A DNA stretch of 34,194 nt, taken from the IMG/VR virus record IMGVR_UViG_2778261184_000007, positions 1-34,194 of that record; one strand, given 5' to 3'. This document shows, piece by piece, positions 6,341-33,439 of the stretch; positions within the stretch are counted from its first letter, which is position 1; each line of letters starts with the position of its first letter. Source of the DNA: a virus (lineage: Duplodnaviria; Heunggongvirae; Uroviricota; Caudoviricetes). The notes under the pieces are model-generated. The model was not told the DNA's origin and ran no database searches. It saw only the letters and a list, made by a program, of their open reading frames with translations. Both the position numbers and the translations under genes were made by a program.

Positions 6341-6366
6341 AAGACTAAAACGTTGGTTTGGGGGAA
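6341..6366. other. Invertase crossover site 1 (cix/mix-like 26-bp imperfect palindrome), nearest the invertase gene
   Basis: Bottom strand reads TTCCCCCAAACC-AA-CGTTTTAGTCTT; the AAACC..GGTTT core resembles hix/gix/cix half-sites. Confidence 0.7.
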
Positions 6367-6864: not shown

Positions 6865-6883
6865 AAACGTTGGTTTGGGGGAA
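6858..6883. other. Invertase crossover site 2
   Basis: Same half-site TTCCCCCAAACC-AA-CGTTT on bottom strand, straddling the cassette 1 stop and the cassette 2 TTG. Confidence 0.7.
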
Positions 6884-7342
6884 GGCTCTGCACTGCCCGT
6901 TGGTGTGCCCGTTCCGTGGCCCTTAGAAATACCGCCAACGGGCTGGCTGAAATGTAACGGCGCAGCATTTTCTTCTGAAATGTACCCCAGGCTGGCAAAG
7001 GCTTATCCGACCAATAAATTACCGGATTTACGCGGTGAATTTATCCGTGGCTGGGATGACGGACGGGGCGTTGATAATGGACGCAACCTACTGTCTGCGC
7101 AGTCTGACGCTATTCAGAATATAGTTGGCACTTTTGGGCGTACTCAGCTTTTTAAAGATACGCTGAATTCAGGGCCATTTAGTCAAACTGACTCTATATT
7201 ATCAGTAGGCTTACAACCAACTGAGATCATTGAAGGATATGGTGCTTCTGTATGGACATTCGACGCCTCTCGCTCAGTTCGCACAGCGTCTGAAACACGC
7301 CCCCATAACATTGCGTTTAATTACATCGTAAGGGCGGCATAA
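6875..7342 (+). CDS. Promoterless tail-fibre C-terminal tip cassette 2
   Basis: Same conserved N- and C-terminal blocks with a distinct centre (…NGRNLLSAQSDAIQNIVGTFGRTQLFKDTLNSGPFSQTDSILSVGLQPTEIIEGYGASVWTFDASRSV…). Confidence 0.75.
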   Translation: MGEGSALPVGVPVPWPLEIPPTGWLKCNGAAFSSEMYPRLAKAYPTNKLPDLRGEFIRGWDDGRGVDNGRNLLSAQSDAIQNIVGTFGRTQLFKDTLNSGPFSQTDSILSVGLQPTEIIEGYGASVWTFDASRSVRTASETRPHNIAFNYIVRAA

Positions 7343-7361
7343 AAACGTTGGTTTGGGGGAA
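7336..7361. other. Invertase crossover site 3
   Basis: TTCCCCCAAACC-AA-CGTTTTTATGCC on bottom strand. Confidence 0.7.
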
Positions 7362-7814
7362 GGCTCTGCGCTGCCCGTTGGTGTGCCCGTTCCATGGCCC
7401 TCAGCCACACCGCCAACGGGATGGCTGAAATGTAACGGCGCAGCATTTTCTTCTGAAAAGTACCCAAATCTGGCAAAGGCTTACCCTACTAATAAATTGC
7501 CGGATTTACGCGGTGAATTTATTCGTGGCTGGGATGACGGACGTGGTGTGGATGCCGGGCGACAATTATTATCTTCACAGGGGGATGCAATAAGAAATAT
7601 TGAGGGGTTCGCAGATGGCGGGATTGGCATGTCTTTTGATGCAATCAGAGGGGCTTTTTATGATGCAGGAACACGATCTGCGAGAATGCCGAATAACACA
7701 ACTGATATAGGCAAAACCGATGACCTTGGATTCGACGCCTCTCGTGTCGTGCCAACAGCTAATGAAAACCGTCCTCGTAATATTGCCTTTAATTATATTG
7801 TGAGGGCGGCATAA
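7353..7814 (+). CDS. Promoterless tail-fibre C-terminal tip cassette 3
   Basis: Conserved ends, unique centre. Confidence 0.75.
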   Translation: MGEGSALPVGVPVPWPSATPPTGWLKCNGAAFSSEKYPNLAKAYPTNKLPDLRGEFIRGWDDGRGVDAGRQLLSSQGDAIRNIEGFADGGIGMSFDAIRGAFYDAGTRSARMPNNTTDIGKTDDLGFDASRVVPTANENRPRNIAFNYIVRAA

Positions 7815-7833
7815 AAACGTTGGTTTGGGAGAA
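7808..7833. other. Invertase crossover site 4
   Basis: Same motif with one substitution in the conserved half (GGGAGAAGG instead of GGGGGAAGG). Confidence 0.65.
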
Positions 7834-8301
7834 GGCTCGGCGCTGCCCGTTGGTGTGCCTGTTCCATGGCCCTCAGCCACGCCGCCAACGGGGTGGCTGA
7901 AATGTAACGGTGCAGCATTTTCTTCTGAAATGTACCCCAATCTGGCAAAGGCCTACCCCACCAATAAATTACCGGATTTACGCGGTGAATTTATCCGTGG
8001 CTGGGATGACGGACGAGGCGTTGATGCTGGACGTGCTTTATTGAGCATTCAGACTGGGATGCTGGAAAAACATCGCCATATTGTTGTTGCCAACGATGGG
8101 TATGATTCAAAAGAGGAATGGGAACTGGCGACAATCTTCAGAAGAGCATACACGCAAGGCCGGGGGCTTGATGCTGCTGATGTCGGAGGGACTCTGATTC
8201 CATCACCAACGCTTCATTCACGAGGAAGTATTGGTAACACAGGTGGTAGTGAAACCCGCCCCCGCAATATTGCATTTAACTATATCGTGAGGGCGGCTTA
8301 G
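7825..8301 (+). CDS. Promoterless tail-fibre C-terminal tip cassette 4
   Basis: Conserved ends, unique centre; converges on the chaperone gene with a 6-bp gap. Confidence 0.75.
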   Translation: MGEGSALPVGVPVPWPSATPPTGWLKCNGAAFSSEMYPNLAKAYPTNKLPDLRGEFIRGWDDGRGVDAGRALLSIQTGMLEKHRHIVVANDGYDSKEEWELATIFRRAYTQGRGLDAADVGGTLIPSPTLHSRGSIGNTGGSETRPRNIAFNYIVRAA

Positions 8302-12137: not shown

Positions 12138-12202
12138 ACGAACATAGCCCCTTCATAAGCAATGAACCAATGGAGAGTATGCTCAGTTTGTGATTTCCGT
12201 TG

Positions 12203-14894: not shown

Positions 14895-17800
14895 TTAATC
14901 CTCAAGCAGAGCATCCAGCGACGGGTCATTAATAGTTGTGCTAGCACGTGGTCGCGGTTGCGGCTGCGATGTTTTGACAACCTTATCCGGATCGCCTTTT
15001 GTATTGTTCTTGTTCACATTCAGAAGATCGTTCAGGATAGAGCAGATGTTATCCAGCGCCTTCAACATAGCAGGATCGTTATTTATAGTGTCAGTAGTTA
15101 ATGGTTGTCTTATTCCGCTTCGTGCGAGATCTGTTACAGTAGGAAGCTGTGGTGGCAAAGCAAGAAAAGGTTCTTGCACGGCAGACGCAGAGCCAAATAT
15201 GGCATTATTGGCTTCGTTTGATATACCTCTAATGCTATCTGCGGTTTGTTGAATACCATTATTCAGCCAACTACCGGCGCTCTTGGTAAGCGGGCTAATA
15301 GCCCTGGCAATTGTTGAGTTCTGCCCAGTAGCCTGATAAACCAAATCATTAACAATGCCTGTGCCATCTACCCCACCAATAAGTTGTGAAACGTTATCGC
15401 CAATTGCAGGTAACACAGCAGAGCTAATACGTTTCAGACCTGTTAATGACGAGTCAAACAAAGAGCCAAGCACCCCCTTATCTTCACCATCAATTACCTT
15501 GTATCCATTGTCATAAACTGGAATCCCCCTTGAGTTTACAGAGATTTTTTCACTCTCACTTGCCGAAGAAACACCGGAGAGAAGATCCACTGAAGGCATA
15601 TCGCGTTCAGCTTTTGGTCTTTTTTGTAAAGCGTCTCTTATATCAGTTACCTGGCTTGCTTTTTGAAATCCAAAAGATTTACCGGTTAAGCTGGATATCT
15701 TTTCAGTAAGAGCCTGATCCATTCCTTTCGCTTTTTCGGAAAGCGAAGATATAGAACCAAACGAAGTCGCCGACGCAAAATCCTTAATCAGGCCAAGGTT
15801 TGTACCAGCAAGGCTGGTAGCCGCACCTCCAAATAAATTACCTACCCCGCTGTCATTTATAGCGATTAATCTCTCAAGCAGACTTGATGGCGAGCCAGTA
15901 TTAACATCAACAATCTCTGGATTAATCGGTTGCGATTGATTGCCTGTTTTTTGTGGCTTTTTGACTGCCTGGGCATGTTGTGCAACCTCAATTGGCTGTT
16001 GTGTTGCTGTCGGAACGGCATTCAAAACTGGTTGAGCTGGAGATTTTCCATTAGCATATTTTACCTTGCGACCAACACTATATTGCGAATCGCGGGCAAT
16101 TAGCTGACCACCATTTTCTTTCTGAATTTTATTAATCCGCGCCAATGTTTCGTCAGAGAATTGTCCCTCCCATCGACCAGTGTTAGTGTTAAATGCTCCA
16201 AGTGCATTCTTAATGAACTCATTATTAACTGCCGGATTTCCGCCTTCTTTCGTCGCAATTGCACGAACTAATTGCGTCATAACCTCTGGGTTGCTGACAT
16301 CTATTTTTTCATTAGGCGATACACCAAGATATTTACTGACGTTATCAATATATTGGTTAGTATTGTTCTCATTTGGCGGTGCCCATTTTGAAATGATGCT
16401 GGATACCGTCTGTAACTTCTGATATCCCGCTGCAGCACTGGTGCCGTTGTAATAGCTGGAAACCTGGTTTGCCAGTGCCCTGATCCCTTCTTCAGGTGTG
16501 TTAAATCGCGCAAAACGTTGTTCACCCTTTGCATTTGGCGATTCCAGCGTCGCCCCTTCCTGGTTGGCAAAAACAAGATTACCGAGATTATTATTTCGGT
16601 AATTGCGGTTTTTAGCGTTGCTGCCGCCAATATTCAGATCCGCTGCAATGGTGTTGTTGGCAGGTGCACTAAATTCAGTTGGAGAAGTATACCCGTGCTC
16701 ACCAACTCCATCCTCGCCATTACGCCCACCTTGTAATTGTTCACCTAGAGAATGAATCGCATCGACAGTTTTTTTGGTGCCGTCTTCAACAGCTTTTTTT
16801 ACTTGTTTCGTGTTTTCGTCAGTGGATAAAAATGTATCCTTAAGGCTACCAAAAACAGATTTGGTGATATCTACCGCGCCGTTAACACCACGAGCAATAT
16901 CTCCGGTATCAAAATTCTGAAGTTTTTCACCTGCTCTTTCAAATCCTAGCGCAGAAATTCCTTTCCCTATCAAGTTCGTTGCGCCCGACACCAAGCCACC
17001 CATATCGAGCACATTAGCTGTTGCGTAAGCCGTTTTTTGCTGTTCGGATACAGCATCATCGTCACTTAAACCAAAGGCTGCCTTTTGCGCCTCTGTATCT
17101 GTGTAACCATCTATGGCGTCATATCCAGCCATTGCCAGCGAACCGATGATAGGGACCGCTCTTGCCGCTGTGGATGCTGCTGATTTAACACCTATTTTTG
17201 CTGCACTTTTGAGGGCTACAGATTCAGTTTTTTTCTTTGCAATGACTTCGCCGGTTTTAATGGTGGCATCTTCAGCCACAACACCAGCTGACTTCACGGC
17301 CTTAGCAGTATTTTTTGTTTCCTTTGCAATCCCCTTTGATGTATCGCTGATAGTGCTTACATCTTTGGGTTTGCTGATCTTATTTTTAACTACTTTTGCT
17401 GCTCCGACACCAGTGCCAGCCGCAGCGCTACCGGCAGCAACTTTTTCGCCAGCGGAGAGTGCTTTTTTCCCAAGATTGCGGCCTTTCCTTTTCGATTTGT
17501 TCCGTTTATTTTTTCCCGTCTGATCACCAATATTGATTTTATTTCTTCTGCTTGCTCGATTTTTCCAGAGATCACTTAAGCCGAACTTATTTCCAGAAGA
17601 CACTGATTTCCGAAGCTTAACTATCTCGTCAGAAACATTTTCCAGACCATCAATTATTTTGTTGTCATTGGTCTGAAGGATTTTGGTTTGCTCTTCTACT
17701 GCTTGTGCGGATTTTGTCTCAACAGCGTTATTGAATGCTTTTGCAGATGTTGCTTTTTGAGAATTCACCGCCGCCGGATAAGTAATTACTGGTGATATCG

Positions 17801-18677
17801 CTTTCGAGGTTGATGTTTCTTTTTTCCCCTTTTCTACCAATTCTTTAAGAGATTCTGCTTTACCTGTGATCTCTTTAGTTATGTCGTACATGCCACGAGC
17901 CGCCATCCATAACGGCCCACCAGCACCGACACCAGCTGCATTTGTTAAAGACTCTTCACTGGAAGACTGATTGCCATCTACCCCCATAATGGAACCTAGC
18001 TTTCTGAGAAAGCCAGCTTGTAATTTTGCGTCGGCTTTACGTGCGTTCTGCAATTCTTTTTTTCTGGCTACATCCTCATTGCTTTTTTGGGATACAAAAC
18101 GTCCATTACTATCCCGCAGCGGGCCTTTTAGACTTTGGGGGGATTGTGGTTCAAGAGGGGCTGAATTAGCAGCTACCGGTATAAAACCGTCCGATTTTCG
18201 GATGGTCTGACGTGATTGCACGGAGCGAACACTTTCTTGTGTGTTCGTTGCAACGATAGAGCGGTCCACGGTTTGGTTTATCGGTGCCCTTTCCTTTTTA
18301 GCAGGGAGACGTTTTTTATATGGGTTAGTTTGGACATCTCTAACGCTATCAGATGTACTTTGCTCGTAGTCTTTACGCCTGCGTGATAGTCTGTTGCTAA
18401 CTCTGCCTTGCCTTTCGTCCTGTTGCGTTATGGTGCTTGCCCCAGAAAGAATGGCGTCTTTTACCTCAGCAAGAGCTTTAAGTTCGTTTGTGCTCGCCCC
18501 CTGTATAGCGTCAATTATTGCGATACGGTCTTTATTCTCTTTCAAAATAACCTCTCTTTTGCCAGCGCGATCAACGTTTCCCGGCTTGAGCTTTGTATTT
18601 TTCTTCCAGGGCTTTTGACATATGGAGTGCTCGCCATTGCGGTAATTGTTCAACGTCGCTAACGGGCTGATATCCAT
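14895..18677 (-). CDS. sit: Sit-like tape-measure / structural injection protein (1260 aa) with an internal muralytic-like domain
   Basis: Very long protein in the tail cluster; Lys/Ala/Ser-rich low-complexity segment (about aa 340-520); domain …NLVFANQEGATLESPNAKGEQRFARFNTPEEGIRALANQV…KWAPPNENNTNQYIDNVSKYLGV… (about nt 16250-16650) resembles transglycosylase-type folds. Confidence 0.6.
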   Translation of the reverse strand: MDISPLATLNNYRNGEHSICQKPWKKNTKLKPGNVDRAGKREVILKENKDRIAIIDAIQGASTNELKALAEVKDAILSGASTITQQDERQGRVSNRLSRRRKDYEQSTSDSVRDVQTNPYKKRLPAKKERAPINQTVDRSIVATNTQESVRSVQSRQTIRKSDGFIPVAANSAPLEPQSPQSLKGPLRDSNGRFVSQKSNEDVARKKELQNARKADAKLQAGFLRKLGSIMGVDGNQSSSEESLTNAAGVGAGGPLWMAARGMYDITKEITGKAESLKELVEKGKKETSTSKAISPVITYPAAVNSQKATSAKAFNNAVETKSAQAVEEQTKILQTNDNKIIDGLENVSDEIVKLRKSVSSGNKFGLSDLWKNRASRRNKINIGDQTGKNKRNKSKRKGRNLGKKALSAGEKVAAGSAAAGTGVGAAKVVKNKISKPKDVSTISDTSKGIAKETKNTAKAVKSAGVVAEDATIKTGEVIAKKKTESVALKSAAKIGVKSAASTAARAVPIIGSLAMAGYDAIDGYTDTEAQKAAFGLSDDDAVSEQQKTAYATANVLDMGGLVSGATNLIGKGISALGFERAGEKLQNFDTGDIARGVNGAVDITKSVFGSLKDTFLSTDENTKQVKKAVEDGTKKTVDAIHSLGEQLQGGRNGEDGVGEHGYTSPTEFSAPANNTIAADLNIGGSNAKNRNYRNNNLGNLVFANQEGATLESPNAKGEQRFARFNTPEEGIRALANQVSSYYNGTSAAAGYQKLQTVSSIISKWAPPNENNTNQYIDNVSKYLGVSPNEKIDVSNPEVMTQLVRAIATKEGGNPAVNNEFIKNALGAFNTNTGRWEGQFSDETLARINKIQKENGGQLIARDSQYSVGRKVKYANGKSPAQPVLNAVPTATQQPIEVAQHAQAVKKPQKTGNQSQPINPEIVDVNTGSPSSLLERLIAINDSGVGNLFGGAATSLAGTNLGLIKDFASATSFGSISSLSEKAKGMDQALTEKISSLTGKSFGFQKASQVTDIRDALQKRPKAERDMPSVDLLSGVSSASESEKISVNSRGIPVYDNGYKVIDGEDKGVLGSLFDSSLTGLKRISSAVLPAIGDNVSQLIGGVDGTGIVNDLVYQATGQNSTIARAISPLTKSAGSWLNNGIQQTADSIRGISNEANNAIFGSASAVQEPFLALPPQLPTVTDLARSGIRQPLTTDTINNDPAMLKALDNICSILNDLLNVNKNNTKGDPDKVVKTSQPQPRPRASTTINDPSLDALLED

Positions 18678-18691
18678 ATAGAGTCAGGTTG

Positions 18692-19513
18692 TTAATAATG
18701 GTTAGCCATCCATTCAGATCTAATTGATGGGATAAACTCTCTATTGAGAAAGGGGACGTACAGTGTGGTTGTCACATCTGCACCCTCCTTAGCGTTTTTG
18801 CAATGTTGCGGAGGCAGGATCAGTCGGCTTGTGCCTCTCTCAATAGACATTTTCAGGCCGTGGCGTAGGTCTTTTTGCATAAGCTGTATGCGAGCCACAA
18901 GCGGTGTAAACTCGGTTTCAAGCGCCATGCTTTCAATGATGTCGAAGCGTCGGTTAGCTGCTTGAGTGAAGTCTTCCGGATCGTCGTCCAGTGCTGTGCA
19001 TAAAGCGAGTTCTGCAATGCGCATACGGGCCACGCCTGCACTGTATTCGGGGCTTTTCATATCAGGAAGTGACGCTCGCATTCGTTCAAGGAGTTCCGCG
19101 CCTTTCCCGGTTAATGGTTTAAGTATCCAGTCAGTTGGTACTCCATTTACTGGTACGTTGGTTTTCACGTAAGGAGGTACAGTGAGTATTTCTACTGTTT
19201 GGGCCAGGTCGCTCAGGTTAATATCTGCATGATGCGTATTACCGCAGTGACTGCACTCATAGGAGTAGGTCATTACTGCATCGGGGCGCGAATTAACAAA
19301 TATCCACCAAAGAGCAGTTCTGCGATCCTGAACTGTCCAGTTAGCACTGTCGTTAATTTCACCATCCTGCATAGAGTTAAGGTACTCTGTAGTAGTTGCC
19401 TCATCTTCTGCCGGGTTCAGGTCAGAATATTTCAGCGCATCCTTCACGGTAGGGGCGTGGAACTGAATTTCTGTCTCAGGACGGGAAGGCAATGGGAATT
19501 TTGGAATGTTCAA
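18692..19513 (-). CDS. Morphogenesis protein (PmgB-position, 273 aa)
   Basis: Synteny only. Confidence 0.35.
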   Translation of the reverse strand: MNIPKFPLPSRPETEIQFHAPTVKDALKYSDLNPAEDEATTTEYLNSMQDGEINDSANWTVQDRRTALWWIFVNSRPDAVMTYSYECSHCGNTHHADINLSDLAQTVEILTVPPYVKTNVPVNGVPTDWILKPLTGKGAELLERMRASLPDMKSPEYSAGVARMRIAELALCTALDDDPEDFTQAANRRFDIIESMALETEFTPLVARIQLMQKDLRHGLKMSIERGTSRLILPPQHCKNAKEGADVTTTLYVPFLNREFIPSIRSEWMANHY

Positions 19514-19655
19514 TTATTCCTCCGAAAAGCAGGTATCTGTTCATTTTCCAGAGGATAGGGAGTGTGTGATTTGCGATGGGGATTGAATGAAGATCTTTGC
19601 TAGTCGAGAAGCGATTATTGAGGGTGATTTTTACACCTTAAGTGACGCTACTCAC

Positions 19656-19664
19656 ATATCCACA
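19656..19664. promoter_or_regulatory. DnaA-box-like 9-mer (ATATCCACA) followed by an AT-rich stretch with short CCTTTTT repeats (19671-19715), candidate DNA-unwinding element
   Basis: 8/9 match to TTATCCACA; sits upstream of the direct iteron array and rep gene. Confidence 0.4.
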
Positions 19665-19760
19665 GAGTATTTTTATAAACCTTTTTCCATTTTTAATCCT
19701 TTTTAGATCCTTTTTAGGCGTCGCTGGAGCCAGTAGTGGCGCGGGCTGTAGAGGAGGCTG

Positions 19761-19877
19761 GTGTAAGATTTGCCCTCAATTAAATACGATCGGTGTAAGA
19801 TTTGCCCTCAAAAGGTGTAAGATTTGCCCTCAAAAGGTGTAGTAATTGCCCTCAAAGTGATGTAAAAATTGCCCTCA
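19761..19877 (+). repeat. Five direct iterons (GTGTAAGATTTGCCCTCAA and variants), 22-bp phased after the first pair
   Basis: Copies at 19761, 19793, 19815, 19837, 19859; an inverted copy at 19621-19640. Confidence 0.85.
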
Positions 19878-19901
19878 CCATTTGAAGGATCACACAGGGT
19901 T

Positions 19902-20657
19902 ATGAACAGAGCGGAATTAACAGCAAAAGCAGTCAGCCTGATTGAGTCAGCGACACCTATTAGTCGTAGTTTGGCACAAGCCAATGAGATCACGGAGGCT
20001 GCTTATCACCTGACTCGCGACCAAAAGCGACTGTTGTTTATTGTGGTGGGAAGACTTCGCTATGCTTCTAAGGATGGCGTTCTTGGTTCAGGTGCCTGTG
20101 AGTTGACGGTCAACGAATATGCAGAGATGTATAATTTGCCCTCTGCTGAAGCCAGCAAGGATATTCGTAAGGCCATTTCAGGGCTTAGCGAGAAGAAAGT
20201 TACGATATATAACCCTGATGAATCGACCGAATCAGAAGACAGTTATGAGTCTTATCCTTGGATGATTAAGGATGCCTATTCACCACGGCGCGGGACTTAC
20301 ATTATTCATCTTAATCCATATCTCATGCCGTTTTTTACTCTGCTTGATAAGAGATTCACAAGGCTGAATTTTACCGAAGTATCTCGCCTTACAAATCCTT
20401 ATTCTATGCGGCTTTATGAGTCCTTATGCCAGTACAGGAAGGATGATGGAAGCGGCTTTGCCATACTTGGCGTCGAATGGATGCGGGAGCGTTATGGGTT
20501 ACCAAAAAGCTATCAGCGGTATGCCGAATTTAAGAGAAGTTTTTTAACGAAGGCTGTAGCAGAGATTGAAAAAAATACAAAAATGAAAATAGTCTTCTCA
20601 GAGGTGACGGAAGGCGGCAAAGTTACCAGGATAAAATTTACCTATCAGCAGTCTTAA
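19902..20657 (+). CDS. Iteron-binding replication initiator, Rep_3 (pSC101 RepA-like) family, about 251 aa from ATG 19902
   Basis: Motifs matching pSC101 RepA as recalled: …ELTVNEYAEMYNL…VTIYNP… and …NPYSMRLYESL…; flanked by iterons. The ORF track starts 33 nt earlier inside the iteron array. Confidence 0.8.
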   Translation: MNRAELTAKAVSLIESATPISRSLAQANEITEAAYHLTRDQKRLLFIVVGRLRYASKDGVLGSGACELTVNEYAEMYNLPSAEASKDIRKAISGLSEKKVTIYNPDESTESEDSYESYPWMIKDAYSPRRGTYIIHLNPYLMPFFTLLDKRFTRLNFTEVSRLTNPYSMRLYESLCQYRKDDGSGFAILGVEWMRERYGLPKSYQRYAEFKRSFLTKAVAEIEKNTKMKIVFSEVTEGGKVTRIKFTYQQS

Positions 20658-20948
20658 GGGCAATTTTTACACCCCTCTCAAGGTGTAGAATTTGCCCTTA
20701 ACGATCGGCAATTGAGGGCAATTTTTACATCTTAATTGCATGTATCTTGTTATTAGCAAGTTGTGTTTTTATATAACGTATTGATATGTAAGGACTATGT
20801 AAAAATCGCCCTCAACCAATATCGTGCGTATCGTGCATTCTTATTGCGCTTTTTTATTATCATTCACTGTGTTAACTGATTGATATTATTGAAATGTGTA
20901 AAGAATGCCTTCATTACAGATGAATTGATGATGTAAAAAATGCCCTCA
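20655..20948. repeat. Downstream iteron cluster (mixed orientation), candidate copy-control locus
   Basis: Copies at 20655-20675 (inverted), 20681-20701, 20712-20731 (inverted), 20797-20816, 20929-20948; AT-rich stretch 20740-20790. Confidence 0.75.
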
Positions 20949-21038
20949 AAATTGCGCTACCTTCCCTACCCGCTATCGTTGAGGGCGTGGGTGCTGACGG
21001 GAAATGAGCAACCCTCCAGCACACATAATTAAAGCTAT

Positions 21039-21746
21039 TCAGAATTTGATCACTCCACTCACAGCCCCCTTTAACGCACTTGTAGCCATGCCAGCGGCAC
21101 CGTTGACCAAAGCAGAAACACCTGAGCCTGCGGATGTGTATTTCTGGAAAGTGATTGGGTATGACAAGAACTCTGACACCTGATCACGTGAGCGTGTGAT
21201 TTCCCCAAGTTGCGTAGGAAATACGCGCATTTCTTCTTCCAGTTCTTTTCCGCCGTCCTGAGTCACCCGGTAGACACGGATTTTCATCAGATATTCAGGA
21301 GGAAGGTTTATTGTTCCATCAGGATTTGTTACACGAGAACGACGCTCTTTGAACCAGTCCATGATCTTGCCATCTTCGGTATCCCTCACGGTCATAGTGA
21401 CCGGTCCGGCGCTAACATAGGTTGGCTTGCTGAATTCTACGCTGCCGATCACCTTGCTTTCTGTCTCAATGTTTCCACTGCTGTAGGTGATATCCTTCAC
21501 GAACATATCGAAGCCGTTCAGGCCATCCACTTCAACGGTCCACTGCCACCCCTGGGCGTAACGGATACGCATAGCGGCAGCAACAATATTTTTCCCGTAG
21601 GCAATATCGCTACTGTAATTCCCGCTTACCCCGCCGCCTGATATGGCTTTATCAAGAATGTCGCTAATGAGGTTGCTGGTGAATGATTTCGTGTTAAATG
21701 ACAATGCGGTGGTCAACGTTCTACCAACGCTGCTGAAAATACTCAC
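21039..21746 (-). CDS. Tail structural protein (possible tube, Tub-position, 235 aa)
   Basis: Position after the PmgB-like gene; no diagnostic motif. Confidence 0.35.
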   Translation of the reverse strand: MSIFSSVGRTLTTALSFNTKSFTSNLISDILDKAISGGGVSGNYSSDIAYGKNIVAAAMRIRYAQGWQWTVEVDGLNGFDMFVKDITYSSGNIETESKVIGSVEFSKPTYVSAGPVTMTVRDTEDGKIMDWFKERRSRVTNPDGTINLPPEYLMKIRVYRVTQDGGKELEEEMRVFPTQLGEITRSRDQVSEFLSYPITFQKYTSAGSGVSALVNGAAGMATSALKGAVSGVIKF

Positions 21747-21761
21747 TCTGCGCCTCCAGCG

Positions 21762-22313
21762 TTAAAAAATGGTAGCCCCCGGAATAATGGCCCGGTTTGA
21801 GGACATTTTTTCCTCAATCTCCTGCACGCGGGCATATAGCGTGGCTTCATCGGGCAGATCTGAGTAGTCAAATTTCCCGTCGATGGACGCTCTACGCTGC
21901 CGGGCGACATTTCTTACATTGATAAGCGCCTCCAGATATTCCTCCAGCATTCCAATGATTGCAGGAGGCACTTGCCATTCATCCAGCTCTCTGTCGCGTA
22001 GATTAACCAGATACAGCATTCGAAAAGGCCAGCGTTCTGAACCTGTTAGCTCTAATTCAATAAATCCGGATAATTCATCCGAATAGACCAACAAGCCGTT
22101 GTTGTCGGTAACATGAACCAGAGAGAGATAATCTTCTGGCAACGGGATTGCAGTACCACCAGCTTTTTCAAGTTTTAACGTTTTCACTACCCCTGCCCTG
22201 TCCTGATACGTGGTCAGAGCTTTGATCAGGAATGCTTTCAACGTTTCTTCTTCACGCACAAGCAGCGGATTAAATCGCTCTTTAACGCTTTCTAATAATT
22301 CAATTGGTGTCAT
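21762..22313 (-). CDS. Phage morphogenesis protein (183 aa)
   Basis: ORF in the structural string. Confidence 0.35.
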   Translation of the reverse strand: MTPIELLESVKERFNPLLVREEETLKAFLIKALTTYQDRAGVVKTLKLEKAGGTAIPLPEDYLSLVHVTDNNGLLVYSDELSGFIELELTGSERWPFRMLYLVNLRDRELDEWQVPPAIIGMLEEYLEALINVRNVARQRRASIDGKFDYSDLPDEATLYARVQEIEEKMSSNRAIIPGATIF

Positions 22314-22367
22314 TGTTGCCTACAACTCAATAACAAGGATGTTCCCGCCACAAGGGCGGGATAGGGA

Positions 22368-22859
22368 TTATTCCGCCCAGTTGTAAACAATGCGCAGGGA
22401 AGGTTTAACGACCGCCGTTACGTCTTCGGATGAGAAGTCCACGGCGTCGGAATACACTTTGCAATGAGAATATGTGCGGATCAGACCTTTATGGTTACCG
22501 CTATTCGATTCAGCCGCCGCCTGTAAGGTAATTTCCAGATATTCTTTTCCGTATACCATCTGTTTTACAGCGGCGAGAACTGCGCCTTCGATAGTTTCCG
22601 CGCATGTGACCTGAAATTCACCAGAGTTGCGTAATGGTCCGTGCTGGTTGAATTTCATGCCACCGGGGGCGTAATCCTCCACATCTTCACGTGTCATTTC
22701 TGGTAACTGAGCTGTACGAACTAGTACAGACAGATGTTCGTAACCCTTAATGGTCATCCAATATTCAGAACCAATAAGTTTTTCGCCTGCAGCCAGGTTT
22801 TTATTAAACCGGGATTTTAGAAAGGCCATATCGGCTTTTGTATTTGCAAAACCGGACAT
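22368..22859 (-). CDS. Phage tail/baseplate protein (163 aa)
   Basis: ORF in the structural string; short GC hairpin (22344-22360) in the gap to the next gene. Confidence 0.35.
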   Translation of the reverse strand: MSGFANTKADMAFLKSRFNKNLAAGEKLIGSEYWMTIKGYEHLSVLVRTAQLPEMTREDVEDYAPGGMKFNQHGPLRNSGEFQVTCAETIEGAVLAAVKQMVYGKEYLEITLQAAAESNSGNHKGLIRTYSHCKVYSDAVDFSSEDVTAVVKPSLRIVYNWAE

Positions 22860-22867
22860 AAATACTC

Positions 22868-23458
22868 CTACACAAAAACAGATGAGATATTGCTACGGTT
22901 GATCGATGTGTTACCGCTGCATTGCAGGGTTACCGTGTTATGAGTGAAATAGCCTTCCGGTGTGCGCGGGGCGTCCAGTTGGTAACTCACGCTTTTGATA
23001 ACAACGTCGGTAAGGGCTATGTTCCTACCTATGTTTAACGTTACTGTCTCCGGGCGACGACCGAATGGCGCTACATTGTTCAGTTCCGGCGATTCCATCT
23101 TCAGCAATGCTGTAATGGCTGCGTTCACTTCAAGTTGCGCGTTCGTTGTCGCCATGAAATCAATTATCAGATTAAATTCAGGCGGTTGCTGACCTTCCCA
23201 AACAAGCATTGAGTTGAAGAGGGTTTTTGTTGTTACGCCGGTTGCGGTCTGAAGCGTATCTGCAAGAGAGCCAGCCGCAGCGCTAATACCGCCAAGCAAA
23301 CCTCCTACTGACTGGTTTTCAAATGGTGATTGCCACATTGATGACAGTTCTGCGGTAGATCCTTCACCGATATAACCGACGACCATATCCTCTGAAGAGA
23401 GGATATAAACCTTCATTAACGGACTTATTCCGTCAGGCATTATCGCGCCGCAAATCAA
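22868..23458 (-). CDS. Phage tail/baseplate protein (196 aa, TTG start inferred)
   Basis: GGGAG SD 9 nt upstream of TTG; the first in-frame ATGs lack an SD. Confidence 0.35.
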   Translation of the reverse strand: MICGAIMPDGISPLMKVYILSSEDMVVGYIGEGSTAELSSMWQSPFENQSVGGLLGGISAAAGSLADTLQTATGVTTKTLFNSMLVWEGQQPPEFNLIIDFMATTNAQLEVNAAITALLKMESPELNNVAPFGRRPETVTLNIGRNIALTDVVIKSVSYQLDAPRTPEGYFTHNTVTLQCSGNTSINRSNISSVFV

Positions 23459-23507
23459 ACGCTATTTCTCCCAGGTAGAGGCCACCTTTGCAGGCGGCCT
23501 ATGTCAC

Positions 23508-24248
23508 TTACAAACCGCGTTTTTTGCGAATGCGCATTGATTTTTTGCGGTTGATATTCGCTACGGATGTATGTGCTTTGCGGCGTGCTTTTTTCAGCGC
23601 CTGTTTTTGCAATGACGTCATGCGGCGAGGACGCGGGCGTTTACGGATGATGGTAACCTTGCCATCACGAACCACTTTTTTACGTACCGCTTCCAGCATT
23701 GCGCTATCACCACCAGCAACGGTGTAAATGGCAATAGCTGTTTCCATCATGTCGGTGTCGCTTTCGGAAAGAGCGTCATAAACACGTTCGGCAGCTGAGT
23801 CATCTTCATCGTCGATCATTTCGGTTACATCGTCCTGATCAGCGCCAAGCGCAACAGCTGCATCAGCAAGAGCTGCGAGAGCATCGTTATAAGCATCGAT
23901 TTGCTCATCGGTGAAATCGGTGTCTTCATCGATATCAGCCAGGCCAGCCATAGTGATTGCTAATGCATCAAATGAGTCAGCCTCCGGATCACCATCTTCA
24001 ACCCAACCAGCAAGCATGGAAGCTGCCAGGCTGCGCATATCACCTTGTGCACGGGATTCAACCGCTTCCATCATCGCGGTTTCAATGTCGCCTTTGGGCT
24101 TTGGTTGAGTGTCCTTTCCTTTCTGTCCTGCGCTTTCCAGCATGGCGTTATCATTATTGTCCTGCGTGGATTTACCACCGCTTTCAAAGCAGCCAGAACC
24201 GAAAATCGCACGCATAAAAGGATCAGCAGTATAATTTTTCATATTCAA
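23508..24248 (-). CDS. 246-aa protein with acidic body and strongly basic C-terminal tail
   Basis: D/E-rich centre (…DEDTDFTDEQIDAYND…DDEDDSAAE…) followed by RKRPRPRRMTSLQKQALKKARRKAH…RKKSMRIRKKRGL. Confidence 0.4.
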   Translation of the reverse strand: MNMKNYTADPFMRAIFGSGCFESGGKSTQDNNDNAMLESAGQKGKDTQPKPKGDIETAMMEAVESRAQGDMRSLAASMLAGWVEDGDPEADSFDALAITMAGLADIDEDTDFTDEQIDAYNDALAALADAAVALGADQDDVTEMIDDEDDSAAERVYDALSESDTDMMETAIAIYTVAGGDSAMLEAVRKKVVRDGKVTIIRKRPRPRRMTSLQKQALKKARRKAHTSVANINRKKSMRIRKKRGL

Positions 24249-24257
24249 ACCTCTCTC

Positions 24258-24280
24258 CCCCGCATCATTTAGCGGGGGGT
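24258..24280. other. GC hairpin (CCCCCGC-loop-GCGGGGG) immediately downstream of the sheath-like gene stop
   Basis: On the minus transcript it sits between the stop codon and the SD of the next gene; candidate attenuator. Confidence 0.35.
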
Positions 24281-24286
24281 TATAAA

Positions 24287-25945
24287 TCAGCGCATCAGAA
24301 TTGGCTTACCGACGATTCGGCGAGCTGTACCGGTCGGACAAACAGACCAGGACACTTCCCACAGATCGATGTCCTTTTGGACAACCTGAACAACATATGG
24401 ATCTTCGCCCTGGGACTTGTCACGTGGAGTAACCAGCGCACCGGCTGCAACGTAACGGTCAAGCAATTCAGTCATTGCTTTCATTAGCGTTTCTTTGGTA
24501 ATGCCATCCGGTTCGTGCTTAATCGCCTGAGCTACTTCATAGAAATCTCTGGCGATGGCGTTCATCAAGGAAGACACATGCTGGAATCGCAGATAGTTGT
24601 TTTTGCTGTAAGTTGTTAAAGAGTCGTCAATGTAAACGGACCCGTCAGCAGCAACTGAAACTGGATTAATGCGCGCAAGAACGAACGCTTCACGATCAAC
24701 TGCACCGATATTTGGAATTCGGGCAATGTTCTGTCGATCAATAATCGCGCGTGATATACCTGCAGGTGCGTAATGCCAACCACCAACATCCGGTACCAGC
24801 GCCACTCCTTTTGCTTTCGCTACGAATGCGTCGCAGCTAATGCCATAGACGACATTCATTCCAGTGAAAGTATCTCGGCAGGAGAGCGGGAAGTAGTAAC
24901 GGCTTGGTTGATGTGAGCCGCCAAAACTATGGCTTTTCGCTTCTGAAATAGCGTTTTCAGGTGTCTGGTTGCCCTTCAGGTCATAGAACATGTCTACGCG
25001 AACATCTTCAGCCAGCTTTTTGATTGCGGCTAAGGCGGATGCGTCATAACAACCCAGTGACAGCAATGCGGTGTAATTAACCTCTGAAGCTTCGAGAACC
25101 TTTAATGCTTCCAGATAGTCTTCAGTGTCAATTTCGGACAGATCTCCATCAGTACCACCTTCAAAAGCTACATCCTCAAAAATGAGTTGAGCAGCGGATG
25201 CTTCTGCATTATCTGCCAGTACGGCACCAATGCGAGTGGACTGGCTTTCAAGCAGTGTCGGAATCCATGCTGGTTGGCCCATGTCGTTAGTGCCTTCTGG
25301 ATTGAAAGACACCTGGTGGCTTTCCAGCACCTCAATGGACCCATCGGTTTGTTTTTCTTTCAGCGTCAGCGTAAAGAGTTCGCTTTCTTCATCATCGCGA
25401 GTTAGTGATAACGTGCGATTTTGAGATGCATCACCATCTTTGATGAAGAATAATGCCTTCTCTTCACCTTTAATCCTGGGCGTCTCTTTGGGTGTGAAGG
25501 ACACTGATTGAGTCGTTGCAGTTGAAGCAACACCAACGCTTAATGTGTCACCTGGATTTACTGTGGTTTCAGTAGGTTCAACGGAAAGTTCTTTGCTCGC
25601 CTTTGCCGCTTTTGCTTTGCCCACAACGGAAACAGAAATACCCGGCACCTTCATGTCTTTAGCGCAAACTCGAACGACATATCCAGAGCCGCCTTTTACT
25701 GCACGCTCCACGTGGCGATATGGTTCAAATGCCGCACCCTGGCGAGGGTGAATCGGTGAACCTAATACGCTTTGATAAGTCGTATCGTCAACTTTCAGTA
25801 CCTTACCCGGTGCGCCACGACGCGATATTACAAGCCCAGCAAAGACGGATGCGCCACCGCTGGTATTGGTGAGGGTAGCGTCAGCATTTACTGACATTAC
25901 AGCAACGCCAGCTGCCTGCCCTACCGAAAAACTAATCTTATTCAT
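24287..25945 (-). CDS. Contractile tail sheath-like protein (552 aa)
   Basis: Size and C-terminal region (…GWHYAPAGISRAI…ARINPV…) consistent with myovirus sheath proteins; flanked by hairpins as is common for highly expressed structural genes. Confidence 0.5.
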   Translation of the reverse strand: MNKISFSVGQAAGVAVMSVNADATLTNTSGGASVFAGLVISRRGAPGKVLKVDDTTYQSVLGSPIHPRQGAAFEPYRHVERAVKGGSGYVVRVCAKDMKVPGISVSVVGKAKAAKASKELSVEPTETTVNPGDTLSVGVASTATTQSVSFTPKETPRIKGEEKALFFIKDGDASQNRTLSLTRDDEESELFTLTLKEKQTDGSIEVLESHQVSFNPEGTNDMGQPAWIPTLLESQSTRIGAVLADNAEASAAQLIFEDVAFEGGTDGDLSEIDTEDYLEALKVLEASEVNYTALLSLGCYDASALAAIKKLAEDVRVDMFYDLKGNQTPENAISEAKSHSFGGSHQPSRYYFPLSCRDTFTGMNVVYGISCDAFVAKAKGVALVPDVGGWHYAPAGISRAIIDRQNIARIPNIGAVDREAFVLARINPVSVAADGSVYIDDSLTTYSKNNYLRFQHVSSLMNAIARDFYEVAQAIKHEPDGITKETLMKAMTELLDRYVAAGALVTPRDKSQGEDPYVVQVVQKDIDLWEVSWSVCPTGTARRIVGKPILMR

Positions 25946-28136: not shown

Positions 28137-28294
28137 GGTTAAGCCCTAAATTCGGGCGCGGCGTGAAGGTTCTTTTGACGGGCTAACAATACCTACTTTG
28201 TGATTTAGTCAATAGGTTTAGTAAAATAAAATATATTAACACTCATGTTGTTATGTGATTTAATTTTAGTTTTCTAACACAAAACATTAGAGTT

Positions 28295-31176: not shown

Positions 31177-31201
31177 TGTGTCTCAGAAGTGGAGCAAGAA
31201 G

Positions 31202-32158
31202 ATGCGCATTTTTATCGATGATGGTTCAACCAATATCAAAATGCTGTGGGAGCACGACGGGGAAACTCGCACTCACATCAGCCCTAACAGCTTTAAGCGC
31301 GGATGGTCAGCAACATTTGGTGCGGGCAAGCCGTTTAACTATGTCATTGACGACGAAAAGTATTCGTATGATTTGATCTCGCCAGATGTTCTGCCGACGA
31401 ATAACGTGGAATGGCAATACAGCCCGCTTAACGTCCTGGCTGTTCACCATGCCCTGCTGACAAGTGGCATTGAGCCGCAGGAAGTAGAAATTGTGGTCAC
31501 GCTGCCTCTGGCGGAGTTTTACGACGACGACGCGCAATACAATCTCGATAACATCGAGCGCAAGAAAGCCAGCCTTATGCGCCCCGTCACGCTGAATAAA
31601 GGCAATGTGTTCACGATTAAGAAAGTTACGGTACGCCCGGAGTCTATTCCGGCAGGAATTGGCCTGTGCGACAATCTGAACCCTGCCCATTCTGTTCTTA
31701 TCGTCGATTTGGGTGGAACTACCCTTGATGTTTCAATGGTCGCCGGGCAAATGACGGCAGTTTCCCGTGTTTTTGGCGATTCGAATCTTGGCGTCTCTCT
31801 GGTTACCAGGGAAGTAAGGCAAGCACTTGCCAGAGCCAATACCGAAACGTCAAATTACAATGTCGATCAGCTCATTATTAACCGCCACGATGAAGATTAT
31901 CTGAACGACAATATCAATGACCCATCAGCGGTTGGTGATGTGAAAAAGGCCATTGCCGCAAGCATTGACCGTCTGCGTACCCGCGTTCTTGATGTGATTG
32001 GCGACTTTAAAGGATATACGCATGTCATGGTGATCGGTGGTGGCGCACCGCTGGTGGCAGATGCAATTCGCGAGCAAGTTAATATTCGTGATGACCGTTT
32101 CTTCGTGGCGGATGACCCGCAACTTGCTCTTGTTCATGGCCTGAAAGCAATCGGTTAA
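31202..32158 (+). CDS. parM: Actin-like plasmid segregation ATPase ParM/StbA (318 aa from ATG)
   Basis: N-terminus MRIFIDDGSTNIKMLW…HISPNSFK…, …NVEWQYSPLNVLAVHHALLTSG… and DLGGTTLD match the R1/R100 ParM/StbA pattern; SD GGAG 7 nt upstream. Confidence 0.85.
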   Translation: MRIFIDDGSTNIKMLWEHDGETRTHISPNSFKRGWSATFGAGKPFNYVIDDEKYSYDLISPDVLPTNNVEWQYSPLNVLAVHHALLTSGIEPQEVEIVVTLPLAEFYDDDAQYNLDNIERKKASLMRPVTLNKGNVFTIKKVTVRPESIPAGIGLCDNLNPAHSVLIVDLGGTTLDVSMVAGQMTAVSRVFGDSNLGVSLVTREVRQALARANTETSNYNVDQLIINRHDEDYLNDNINDPSAVGDVKKAIAASIDRLRTRVLDVIGDFKGYTHVMVIGGGAPLVADAIREQVNIRDDRFFVADDPQLALVHGLKAIG

Positions 32159-32165
32159 CGAGGTA

Positions 32166-32510
32166 ATGTCCATGTCTCAGGAACGTAAGAAAGTGATGAT
32201 TTATCTTCGCCCAGAGGCTTATGCCAATGAAAAGGCGGCGAGCGAGAAGATAAAAAAACATAGCGATATGGCAAGAACCGCATTGTTGGCAGGGCTTGCG
32301 CTGGGAGAAGTCGATAGCAGGCTTCCAGGATTACTGGCTTCCCTGCTGACCGAAGACAATAACCCGGAGCTGATCCGAAAAATGCTGGCATCCTTCCTGG
32401 AACTACCAGCTGCGGTTGAGGAGCGCCCTGCCTCCATTGAGCCAGTGAAGGAGCAAGTTGTTGCCAAAAGCGCGTCGGCGCGCAATCTGGCTGACTCTCT
32501 ACCTGATTGA
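32166..32510 (+). CDS. parR: ParR/StbB-like centromere-binding adaptor (114 aa)
   Basis: Directly downstream of parM; …RTALLAGLALGE… resembles the ParR helix. Confidence 0.6.
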   Translation: MSMSQERKKVMIYLRPEAYANEKAASEKIKKHSDMARTALLAGLALGEVDSRLPGLLASLLTEDNNPELIRKMLASFLELPAAVEERPASIEPVKEQVVAKSASARNLADSLPD

Positions 32511-32528
32511 CAGAAGATGTGCTGGTTT

Positions 32529-32554
32529 AAGGCTGCAAATTGCAGCCTTTTTTA
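32529..32554 (+). terminator. Rho-independent terminator after parR
   Basis: GGCTGC-AAATT-GCAGCC followed by TTTTTTA. Confidence 0.7.
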
Positions 32555-32583
32555 TGCATTAATGGTGTCTAATTGGTGTTAAT

Positions 32584-32764
32584 CTGGAACCAGTTAGGTG
32601 CTGTTATGGTGTAATTTTGTATCTGGTTCCAATTTGGGGCTGATTTCGTGTTAAATAGGATGCAATATAAGGTGTATTTGGTCTGATTGATGTTATACTT
32701 TGCCAAACATTCATGACTCCATTATAGAGCCTGTCCCGCATCAAAAAGGCTCTTATCTGGAACC
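32584..32764. repeat. Operator/centromere-like repeats upstream of the ParA-type gene
   Basis: CTGGAACC at 32584 and 32757 and the inverted CTGGTTCC at 32623, interspersed with GGTGT repeats. Confidence 0.45.
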
Positions 32765-32797
32765 GTTTTGATACCAAAATCACACCGAGGAACGGAT

Positions 32798-33439
32798 ATG
32801 ATTATATTGGTAGCCAGCCAAAAAGGTGGCTGTGGCAAATCAACCACCAGCGTAAATATTTGTGCGGAGCTTGCCCGCGCAAATAAGGACGTAGTTCTAC
32901 TTGATGCAGATAAGCAAGGAACATCTGCCCGTTGGGCATCGGACCGTAATGCGGCAGAGGTTTCTCCAGTAATTCATTGCGTCCAGAAGTTTGGGAATAT
33001 TCGTGAAACACTTCTTGATCTGGACAAGCGTTATGAATTTGTGGTTGTTGATACCGCTGGTCGTGATAGCAAAGAAATGCGCACCGGTATTACTGCGGCG
33101 GATGTTTTGCTTGTTCCATTCAGGCCATCTCAGCCAGATTTAGACACTCTGGCGCATTTTGTTGAAGTCTTTGAAGAGGCTTTGGATCTGATGCCTAATC
33201 CTAGCATTAAGGCGTGCGCAGTCTTAACAATGGCCCCATCCAATCCGGTTGTGAATGAAGCCAATGAGGCCAAAGAGTACCTGGCTGAATATCCGCAACT
33301 GAAGTTGCTGAAAACCATCATTCGCGATCGCAAGGTTTACCGCGATTGTATGGCTGAAGGGAAGGGCGTTGTTGAGATGGACAACGGGAAAGCTAAAGGT
33401 GAAATCCAGATGTTGGTTAAGGAGTTATTAAGTGATTAA
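32798..33439 (+). CDS. Small Walker-type partition ATPase (ParA/ParF-like, 213 aa from ATG)
   Basis: Deviant Walker A KGGCGKST near the N-terminus; size typical of type Ib ParA; SD GAGG 7 nt upstream. The ORF track adds 10 codons upstream. Confidence 0.85.
   Translation: MIILVASQKGGCGKSTTSVNICAELARANKDVVLLDADKQGTSARWASDRNAAEVSPVIHCVQKFGNIRETLLDLDKRYEFVVVDTAGRDSKEMRTGITAADVLLVPFRPSQPDLDTLAHFVEVFEEALDLMPNPSIKACAVLTMAPSNPVVNEANEAKEYLAEYPQLKLLKTIIRDRKVYRDCMAEGKGVVEMDNGKAKGEIQMLVKELLSD

Follow-up and report, generated by a model that had tools for sequence, protein, structure and literature searches.

Known replicons and the D6 group

The mini-F replicon, as modelled, comprises two DnaA boxes, an AT-rich 13-mer, four iterons, an operator and five negatively acting incC iterons (PMC13028717). 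For phage P1, the oriR-repA-incA replicon adjoins parA-parB upstream of gene 23, while the gap between tub and pmgB measures just 14 bp. As for the P1-related D6 group, the annotation of Escherichia phage D6 calls orf42 a putative plasmid initiator, "repB associated with iterons" was published for the D6-like plasmid pYU39_89 (PMC6799933), and replication genes were described as separate from partition genes in the D6 subgroup P1-g2 (PMC7969092). D6-like phage-plasmids are common in E. coli, Shigella and Salmonella, and according to a surveillance preprint the group falls outside PlasmidFinder coverage (bioRxiv 10.1101/2025.09.12.675607). Both the replicon and its position among tail genes are already annotated and published. 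What we add is modest: the origin is homologous to F ori2, a late promoter for pmgB can be proposed at the edge of the module, two IHF-like sites and an iteron-like site within rep are conserved, and two other P1-related lineages have the same Rep family in the slot where P1 has its replicon.

The DNA analysed here (the window) is a 34,194-nt stretch of a phage genome. Its 1.5-kb module at 19514-21038 is the plasmid-maintenance replicon of a D6-type (P1-related) phage-plasmid, real and almost certainly working. With high confidence we read it as the replicon by which a phage-plasmid of the D6 type (P1 subgroup 2) is maintained as a plasmid prophage, and as a diverged homologue of mini-F ori2-repE-incC. 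The module, its flanks and the partition genes comprise the following features, where core stands for the 17-bp iteron core TGTAAAAATTGCCCTCA:

18692-19513, minus strand: pmgB-like gene, left flank (98.9% identity to the D6 PmgB-like protein, ~40% to P1 PmgB; D6 annotation)
19552-19572, minus strand: candidate D6-type late promoter for the pmgB-sit operon, AAATCACACACTCCCTATCCT (motif match; putative function)
19619-19635, minus strand: inverted iteron left of the DnaA boxes (2 mismatches to core)
19648-19664, plus strand: tandem DnaA-box-like 9-mers, CTACTCACA (6/9) and, at 19656-19664, ATATCCACA (8/9 consensus positions)
19665-19718, plus strand: putative AT-rich unwinding region, 28% GC, with three CCTTTTT repeats and the 13-mer-like GATCCTTTTTAGG
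19760-19877, plus strand: five direct 19-bp iterons of the GGTGTAAGATTTGCCCTCA type (core starts 19762, 19794, 19816, 19838 and 19861)
19902-20657, plus strand: rep, a Rep_3 initiator of 251 aa with WH1 and WH2 (Pfam, PDB matches, identity to D6 orf42)
20128-20144, plus strand: iteron-like site within rep, TGTATAATTTGCCCTCT (3 mismatches to core)
20655-20948, mixed strands: iteron cluster downstream of rep, comparable to F incC and P1 incA, with six core matches at 20655 (-), 20684 (+), 20713 (-), 20798 (+), 20897 (+, 3 mismatches) and 20932 (+)
20774-20786, minus strand: IHF-consensus site TATCAATACGTTA (exact match to WATCAANNNNTTR; core of the site kept across lineages)
20873-20885, minus strand: IHF-consensus site TATCAATCAGTTA (exact match to the consensus; conserved)
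21039-21746, minus strand: tub-like tail tube gene, right flank (D6 annotation; ~51% identity to P1 Tub)
31178-33439, plus strand: partition genes for ParM/StbA, an StbB-like protein and a small ParA-type ATPase (Pfam and D6 annotation)

The search for Rfam families in the window returned none.

Genomic position and distribution

As the preliminary description of this DNA had stated, the module is flanked by the pmgB-like and tube-like genes and lies on the opposite strand to both. The partition genes, with Pfam matches to StbA_N (1.8e-69), Plasmid_stab_B (3.5e-11) and AAA_31/ParA-type, are ~10 kb away from it. The same description had placed the P1 replicon next to the partition genes and not in the tail cluster, correctly so according to the P1 layout; given that layout and the narrow tub-pmgB gap of P1, its suggestion of a modular replacement or relocation fits.

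Compared with phage D6, the module shows 99.2% DNA identity at the same pmgB-tub position and is the same element. The closest whole-module match is E. coli plasmid pF16EC0589-1 (99.9%), and D6 differs by point changes only. The module also occurs, at ~99% identity, in over 100 D6-like circular plasmids of ~90 kb, and replicon typing returned rep_cluster_1704 (MOB-suite) as the sole replicon in each plasmid record checked. The module belongs to this D6-type replicon by its Rep, 100% identical to orf42, and by its pmgB and tub flanks. A scan of IMG/VR returned D6-group copies only, with no new contexts. The 36-kb record NZ_CP027382.1, considered as a natural mini-replicon, was rejected as linear and incomplete. 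In two further P1-related lineages, a Rep of the same family is found at the canonical site of the P1 replicon.

A gene on the opposite strand within a tail operon, carrying an F-like replicon where none would be expected, could also be explained by a cointegrate or an assembly artefact, in which part of an F-like plasmid had lately become attached to phage DNA in this one record. We reject this explanation because the junctions recur in independent assemblies: Rep is found between pmgB and tub in D6, in the five annotated PLSDB plasmids fetched and in 17/17 D6-group contigs from IMG/VR and GTDB, and some of the lineages are only 85% identical. Besides, at 50% identity to F RepE, Rep is too diverged to have come from F recently.

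The initiator Rep

Assignment of Rep to the Rep_3 initiators (PF01051, PF21205), made in the preliminary description, stands: Rep3_N scores 102.7 bits (2.9e-29, gathering cut-off 22.4) and Rep3_C 58.3 bits (9e-16, gathering cut-off 21.1), both above their thresholds, and cognate direct iterons adjoin the gene. The best match among solved structures is RepE (PDB 1REP and 2Z9O, E ~1e-73), and the closest characterised relative is likewise mini-F RepE, with 50% identity over 228 aa (E 2e-86). NCBIfam NF010305, the RepE equivalog, is the best-scoring family at 280.6 bits, under its cut-off of 342; by sequence, Rep is placed as a sister subfamily of F RepE and not as RepE proper. The label "pSC101 RepA-like" is consequently right for the family (Rep_3) and misses the close relative, F RepE (50% against 27%). 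An alignment of Rep to P1 and pSC101 RepA had also been proposed: similarity to the pSC101 protein covers the N-terminal 154 aa only (27% identity, E 8e-13), and the BLASTP match to P1 RepA is not significant (E 0.057), which does not place the two as orthologues. P1 RepA itself gives only a marginal Rep_3 match.

Between diverged lineages, rep accumulates 44-74 nucleotide differences, ~90% of them at the third codon position, and just 1-4 amino-acid changes, hence Rep is under strong purifying selection. Its conservation (98.4%) exceeds that of the neighbouring structural genes tub (84%) and sit (64%). These values argue against a passenger or vestigial replicon, dispensable to an element whose plasmid state would be maintained by some other, unrecognised origin. 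Such a reading could draw on the partition genes being 10 kb off and on D6 also having the lytic replicon repL, but the iterons and the origin core are conserved across lineages as well, the annotation of the complete D6 genome lists no plasmid-type initiator besides the module Rep, only the lytic repL, and a truncated 74.7-kb variant retains the module (PMC6799933). We consider a passenger replicon extremely improbable and keep to a functional maintenance replicon.

The iteron-like site within rep, an element missing from the preliminary description, recurs with unchanged bases at the corresponding place in the Rep homologues L014, L016, L017 and L045 (57-72% identity), where even the Pro codon CCC is kept; it has been lost from L012 and from F. 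Upstream of rep, a consensus scan found no sigma-70 promoter, and the candidate extended -10 TGTAAAAAT inside iteron 5 is a reading by eye rather than the output of a tool.

Origin region and iterons

The DnaA-box-like sequence reported earlier is present at 19656-19664, in degenerate form: sites matching 8/9 consensus positions occur four times in the window against 8.6 expected, such that ATATCCACA alone is not above chance. The pair carries weight because it aligns with the tandem DnaA boxes TTATCCACTTATCCAC of F ori2, and better pairs are seen in relatives (TTATTCACTTATCCAC in L012, TTATCAACTTATCCAC in L017). The AT-rich stretch with short CCTTTTT repeats, also pointed out before, holds three copies (at 19680, 19698 and 19709). 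It aligns with the AT-rich region of F ori2, with TATTTTTATAA and TTTTTAGATC as common elements, and is nearly invariant across lineages. By alignment, the module presents the mini-F ori2 layout of two DnaA boxes, an AT-rich region with a 13-mer and direct 19-bp iterons.

The iteron core has 13 matches at ≤3 mismatches, all within 19619-20948, against a chance expectation of 0.15 in the whole 34-kb window (0/100 shuffles reach 13). Upstream of rep, five direct iterons had been described as phased at 22 bp. All five exist, and the phasing applies to the last four (spacing 32/22/22/23 bp), since the first interval is 32 bp. These iterons are nearly invariant across lineages, with a variable spacer between iterons 1 and 2. 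Their 3′ half ATTGCCCTCA is identical to the 3′ half of the F iteron TGTGACAAATTGCCCTCAG; the 5′ half, TGTAAnAn versus TGTGACAA in F, differs, meaning that the module does not share the iteron sequence expected for IncFIA specificity. Only one F iteron matches the D6 core, at 4 mismatches. The inverted iteron at 19619-19635 likewise does not figure in the preliminary description; it is unchanged in six lineages while the flanks on both sides vary.

Downstream of rep, where at least five more iterons in both orientations had been noted, we find six. They stand out as conserved islands in a region with a mean column identity of only 72%, and the first two form a head-to-head palindrome overlapping the rep stop codon. 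Where F has its negative-control and incompatibility locus, the module carries these six conserved iterons, which may act likewise. Two of the three IHF-consensus matches in the whole window are inside the 380-bp downstream spacer, and IHF may bind at both (20774-20786 and 20873-20885).

Phylogenetic footprinting over six lineages, which differ by 10-15% in DNA, shows iterons, DnaA boxes, AT-rich core and IHF-like sites conserved and spacers diverging. The architecture of an iteron theta replicon is therefore confirmed in all the elements previously listed, its parts being kept as islands across lineages. The sequence anatomy, homology, conservation and purifying selection reported here are all direct observations.

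AT content is equally high in the downstream spacer (27-30% GC) and upstream, and by itself does not single out one iteron cluster as the neighbour of the origin. The two clusters might have exchanged roles, with the origin downstream of rep (20740-20930) and the upstream iterons serving mainly as rep operator or control locus; the two conserved exact IHF consensus sites adjoining the downstream iterons would suit this arrangement, as would the upstream iterons abutting the rep start, the expected place for an operator. However, the minimal origin of mini-F, with its DnaA boxes and 13-mer region, can be matched base by base to the upstream region, and no DnaA-box matches occur downstream. The downstream AT-rich spacers are also poorly kept outside iterons and IHF-like sites, whereas the upstream AT-rich core is almost invariant. 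Swapped roles are thus very unlikely in our judgement, and we retain the origin upstream of rep.

With the origin upstream, a working scheme can be drawn in which every binding and replication step is borrowed by homology from mini-F. Rep monomers would bind the five 22-bp-phased origin iterons and, with host DnaA at the adjacent box pair and probably HU or IHF, open the AT-rich region 19665-19718, after which the host replisome would be loaded for theta replication. The six downstream iterons, beside the two IHF-like sites, may limit copy number through Rep titration and through pairing with the origin iterons (handcuffing or looping). With no F-type operator present, and with 24 bp between the end of the fifth iteron and the start codon, Rep on the origin iterons probably represses its own gene, as in P1. 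A literature search for autonomous replication by the module found no paper.

Possible late transcription across the module

In P1 the tail genes on either side form one late operon, here interrupted by the module, and the candidate promoter at 19552-19572 would bring pmgB and sit back into expression. The window has 0 matches to the P1 late-promoter consensus AAGTKACTT-N4-TANNAT, which was replaced by a D6-specific motif, AAATCACAAACT-N3-TAnnnT, derived from sequences upstream of late genes. This motif matches five times in the window against 0.52 expected, always on the minus strand and upstream of ddrB, lydA, R, pmgB and gene 23, a support that is partly circular as the motif was built in part from the same sequences. 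In whole D6 it has 13 matches (3.4 expected), 11 of which are upstream of, and co-oriented with, late-type genes. The copy at 19552-19572 is invariant in diverged lineages.

We can speculate further that the cassette moved from the P1 slot into the late tail operon, that head-on late transcription shuts off plasmid-mode replication and that the site within rep adds control. If so, late transcription from tub during lytic growth would read the control iterons, rep and the origin in antisense, the candidate late promoter would keep pmgB and sit expressed, and the iteron-like site would amount to an extra, undescribed control layer. Such transcription would reach rep unhindered, as a search of the minus strand from tub to rep gave no terminator-like site. 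Taken as a whole, this scenario is unlikely, though less so than swapped cluster roles.

Implications

A relative of F ori2 with its own iteron specificity would explain how D6-like elements can coexist with P1 (IncY, p0111) elements and, as it seems, with plasmids of the IncFIA type. Among neighbouring accessions examined for an IncFIA plasmid beside a D6-like one, the first were IncI2 or had no replicon type; a later one was positive, namely strain WCHEC96200, in which a D6-like plasmid is co-resident with an IncFIA/FIB/FIC plasmid. As the F plasmid there is multi-replicon, this case is only suggestive of an incompatibility specificity unlike IncFIA. The defined 1.5-kb fragment is usable for typing or vector construction. 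The current view of iteron replication is unchanged by the module.

Comparison with pSC101, mini-F and P1

With pSC101 the module shares Pfam Rep_3 and the class of iteron replicons dependent on DnaA and IHF. The pSC101 replicon has three iterons and inverted-repeat operators, and is not known to carry a downstream control array.

Likeness to mini-F extends to the order of parts (DnaA-box pair, AT-rich region with a 13-mer-like GATC element, iterons, rep, downstream cluster), to the direct 19-bp iterons with 22-bp phasing and to the two-winged-helix fold family. The two differ in the number of origin iterons (five in the module, four in F), in the iteron 5′ half (TGTAAnAn against TGTGACAA) and in the downstream iterons, six in mixed orientation against five in one direction; the inverted iteron left of the DnaA boxes is extra in the module. 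The repE operator of F, made of inverted half-iterons TGTGACAA that cover part of the rep promoter between iterons and gene, falls in an alignment gap, and no comparable inverted repeat is found in 19860-19901, so regulatory details cannot simply be transferred from F.

The P1 oriR-repA-incA replicon (IncY) has the same role in a related phage-plasmid and resembles the module in its DnaA box, its AT-rich region, its five direct iterons upstream of rep and its downstream array; like the module, it is without a separate operator. The P1 AT-rich region has five GATC sites and that of the module one. While the P1 replicon lies beside parAB upstream of gene 23, the module sits amid tail genes with partition ~10 kb off, and the pair illustrates cleanly how related phage-plasmids can house their replicon cassettes in different slots.

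An F-ori2-type replicon in a D6-type phage-plasmid

The gap between pmgB and tub is filled by a module of ~1.5 kb (19514-21038) that is an F-ori2-type replicon, neither pSC101-type nor P1-type. The preliminary description of an embedded iteron replicon is confirmed in every item (flanks, Rep_3 ORF, iterons, DnaA-box-like sequence and CCTTTTT repeats); its interpretation as an iteron replicon is supported and made more specific, with F ori2 taking the place of the pSC101 type. The features are as follows:

18692-19513 (-): pmgB, left flank of the module
19552-19572 (-): candidate late promoter AAATCACACACTCCCTATCCT, upstream of pmgB at the module edge
19619 (inverted): inverted iteron, core match
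19656-19664: DnaA-box-like ATATCCACA, 8/9 match
19762, 19794, 19816, 19838 and 19861 (direct): five iterons, spacing 32, 22, 22 and 23
19902-20657 (+): rep ORF, 251 aa, Pfam Rep3_N (2.9e-29) and Rep3_C (9e-16)
20128-20144 (+): iteron-like 17-mer TGTATAATTTGCCCTCT inside rep, core match
20655 (-), 20684 (+), 20713 (-), 20798 (+), 20897 (+) and 20932 (+): six downstream iterons, core matches
20774-20786 (-) and 20873-20885 (-): IHF consensus site WATCAANNNNTTR, exact matches
21039-21746 (-): tub, right flank of the module

The 17-bp iteron core TGTAAAAATTGCCCTCA has 13 matches (≤3 mismatches), where 0.15 would be expected over the whole window, and every one of them lies inside 19619-20948. The 8/9 DnaA box alone is not more frequent than chance, and CCTTTTT occurs three times within a stretch of 28% GC. 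Downstream iterons 1 and 2 form a 20+20-bp head-to-head palindrome (20654-20701) that overlaps the rep stop codon and folds, as single-stranded DNA, at -15.5 kcal/mol (z = -4.2); since no T-run follows, it does not qualify as a canonical terminator, and the half-sites of the F repE operator are oriented the other way round.

Across 19400-21200 the window shares 99.2% identity with Escherichia phage D6 (NC_050154/MF356679), a P1-related phage-plasmid, and matches 123 PLSDB plasmid records at up to 99.9% identity, nearly all of them non-mobilizable, ~90 kb and from E. coli, Shigella and Salmonella. Each record checked carries rep_cluster_1704 as its sole MOB-suite replicon type. The window therefore belongs to a D6-type phage-plasmid (P1 subgroup P1-g2). 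The module is not new in itself, having been annotated and published before as the replicon of D6-like phage-plasmids; what the present analysis contributes is descriptive detail.

An identical Rep is encoded on an 11-kb contig filed under an 'uncultured Roseburia sp.' MAG (CALWLV010000256.1), whose pmgB, tub, pmgC, sit, sheath and capsid proteins (those compared) are 89-100% identical; most likely this is a misbinned E. coli phage-plasmid contig. Separately, four tandem ORFs of 153-168 aa occupy 6358-8301 (+) in the invertible tail-fibre region, where the corresponding D6 annotation has S' and U'; the tail-fibre cassette set looks different from that of D6. Between D6 and pYU39_89, a D6-like plasmid, divergence is reported to be greatest in this region (PMC6799933).

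Affinity of Rep and of the origin

The closest solved structures to Rep are mini-F RepE entries (1REP, 2Z9O and others, E ~1e-73), with far weaker matches to R6K pi protein (2e-6) and pPS10 RepA (6e-4). Rep is 50% identical to F RepE over 228 aa (E 2e-86). Similarity to pSC101 RepA, to which Rep had been likened, is detectable but distant (27% over 154 aa, E 8e-13), and that to P1 RepA, itself just a marginal Rep_3 match, is not significant (E 0.057). The NCBIfam RepE equivalog is the top family at 280.6 bits, under its cut-off of 342. In PLSDB, 108 records encode Rep at ≥95% identity and one at 60-80%; the remainder of the best-scoring 5000 records fall below 60%, the top ones being IncFIA repE genes at ~51%. 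Rep is thus a separate protein in a sister relation to RepE, and any likeness to pSC101 RepA is not a close one.

Alignment of 19600-19910 with F 4140-4455 pairs CTACTCAC-ATATCCAC with the tandem F DnaA boxes TTATCCAC-TTATCCAC, and both origins have the motif TATTTTTATAA, the TTTTTAGATC 13-mer region and a matching iteron 3′ half (TGTGACAAATTGCCCTCAG in F, GGTGTAAGATTTGCCCTCA in the module), whereas the iteron 5′ half differs. The module origin is homologous to F ori2, which comprises two DnaA boxes, an AT-rich 13-mer, four iterons and the repE operator, with negative action exerted by the five iterons of incC (PMC13028717). In the alignment the module has a gap opposite the F operator, which is built from inverted TGTGACAA half-sites, and a consensus scan returned no promoter upstream of rep. 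With no such operator and 24 bp between the end of the fifth iteron and the rep ATG, rep would more likely be autoregulated by way of the origin iterons, an arrangement that is annotated for P1 PrepA. In the complete genome of E. coli WCHEC96200 a D6-like plasmid (NZ_CP022228.3) coexists with an IncFIA/FIB/FIC plasmid (NZ_CP022227.3). Like the differing iteron 5′ half, this suggests an incompatibility specificity separate from IncFIA and hints that the two F-related replicons are compatible, although it falls short of proof because the co-resident F plasmid has several replicons.

Conservation of the module

The module lies between pmgB and tub in all four diverged lineages compared (E. coli pMUB-MIN14-1, E. 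coli pPSS-10_3, E. marmotae and E. fergusonii; module DNA 85-91% identical). The inverted iteron, DnaA boxes, AT-rich core, five iterons and leader are near-invariant, while adjacent spacers vary. Downstream, where background identity is 72%, the conserved islands coincide exactly with the six iterons and a pair of short motifs, the IHF sites; the whole 34-kb window has three exact IHF consensus matches, two of them here. Rep differs by 44-74 nucleotides, ~90% at third positions, with only 1-4 amino acids changed.

Rep is likewise between pmgB and tub in 17 of 17 further D6-group contigs (IMG/VR, GTDB), and its identity stays at 98.4% or above in contigs where tub has dropped to 84%, sheath to 80% and sit to 64% (L038 and L039 versus window 14895-25945). 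This reflects either a much stronger constraint on the replicon than on virion genes or its recent spread among lineages by recombination. The iteron-like TGTATAATTTGCCCTCT encodes MYNLPS; its nucleotides, synonymous positions and Pro codon CCC included, are kept in four relatives (L014, L016, L017 and L045) at 57-72% Rep identity, and the site is lost in contig L012 and F repE.

A candidate late promoter at the module edge

P1 tub and pmgB are co-oriented, 14 bp apart, inside a late operon that lacks an operator and is transcribed from LPsit, a late promoter located upstream of pmgC; no late promoter lies between them. No match to the P1 late-promoter consensus occurs in the window. Five matches to the motif AAATCACAAACT-N3-TAnnnT are present, where 0.52 are expected; all are on the minus strand (1445-1465, 5211-5231, 12176-12196, 19552-19572 and 28186-28206), and ddrB, lydA, R, pmgB and gene 23 follow 30-60 bp downstream of them. 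In the whole of D6, which encodes an Lpa homologue, there are 13 matches (≤3 mismatches) against 3.4 expected. Eleven of the 13 precede late-type genes in the same orientation (darB, orf16, prt, ddrB, lydA, R, pmgB, 23, upfC, 7 and mat), and three positions coincide with the annotated P1 late promoters LPdar, LPs and LP23. We read the motif as a candidate D6 late promoter, whose pmgB copy would compensate for the operon split by the module; its support is partly circular, as some of the sequences it matches also served to define it.

Position among P1-related elements

In P1, oriR-repA-incA adjoins parA-parB-parS between upfA and gene 23. The equivalent slot of the window (31178-33439) contains ParM/StbA, a StbB-like protein and a small ParA-type ATPase but no Rep, and apart from this Rep no plasmid initiator is annotated anywhere in the D6 genome, which otherwise has just repL. 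In Cronobacter phage JK004, as in P1, tub and pmgB are adjacent.

A large protein database search returned Rep intermediates at 78, 71, 63, 60 and 57% identity. All relatives examined have the same layout, with a DnaA-box pair, an AT-rich region, 5-6 iterons at 22 bp, rep and downstream inverted iterons. L016 (metagenomic, Rep 63%) bears more than 14 iterons, all inverted, over ~1.1 kb downstream of rep (6739-7867), a control array well beyond the size of those in F and D6; the stretches examined of L016, L017 and a Pantoea megaplasmid contain no phage genes. In L012, a P1-related contig of 87 kb on which DarB-like and ddrB-like genes are also present, Rep (78%, 6001-6756) adjoins higBA. L014, a P1-g1-like element with capsid protein 77% and sheath 74% identical to those of P1, has its Rep (71%, 6001-6759) in P1's own replicon slot (upfC, upfB ... 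Rep ... 23, 22, 21), and so does the 93-kb Erwinia aeris contig L045 (Rep 60%, 6403-7152, upstream of gene 23; order ParA-like, PAAR/upfC-like, Rep, 23, 22 ... pmgC, tub). The replicon family is therefore found in at least three positions among P1-related elements, two of which have it in the canonical P1 slot, and of the two events first proposed for the module, replacement or relocation, relocation fits the D6 lineage as well as replacement does.
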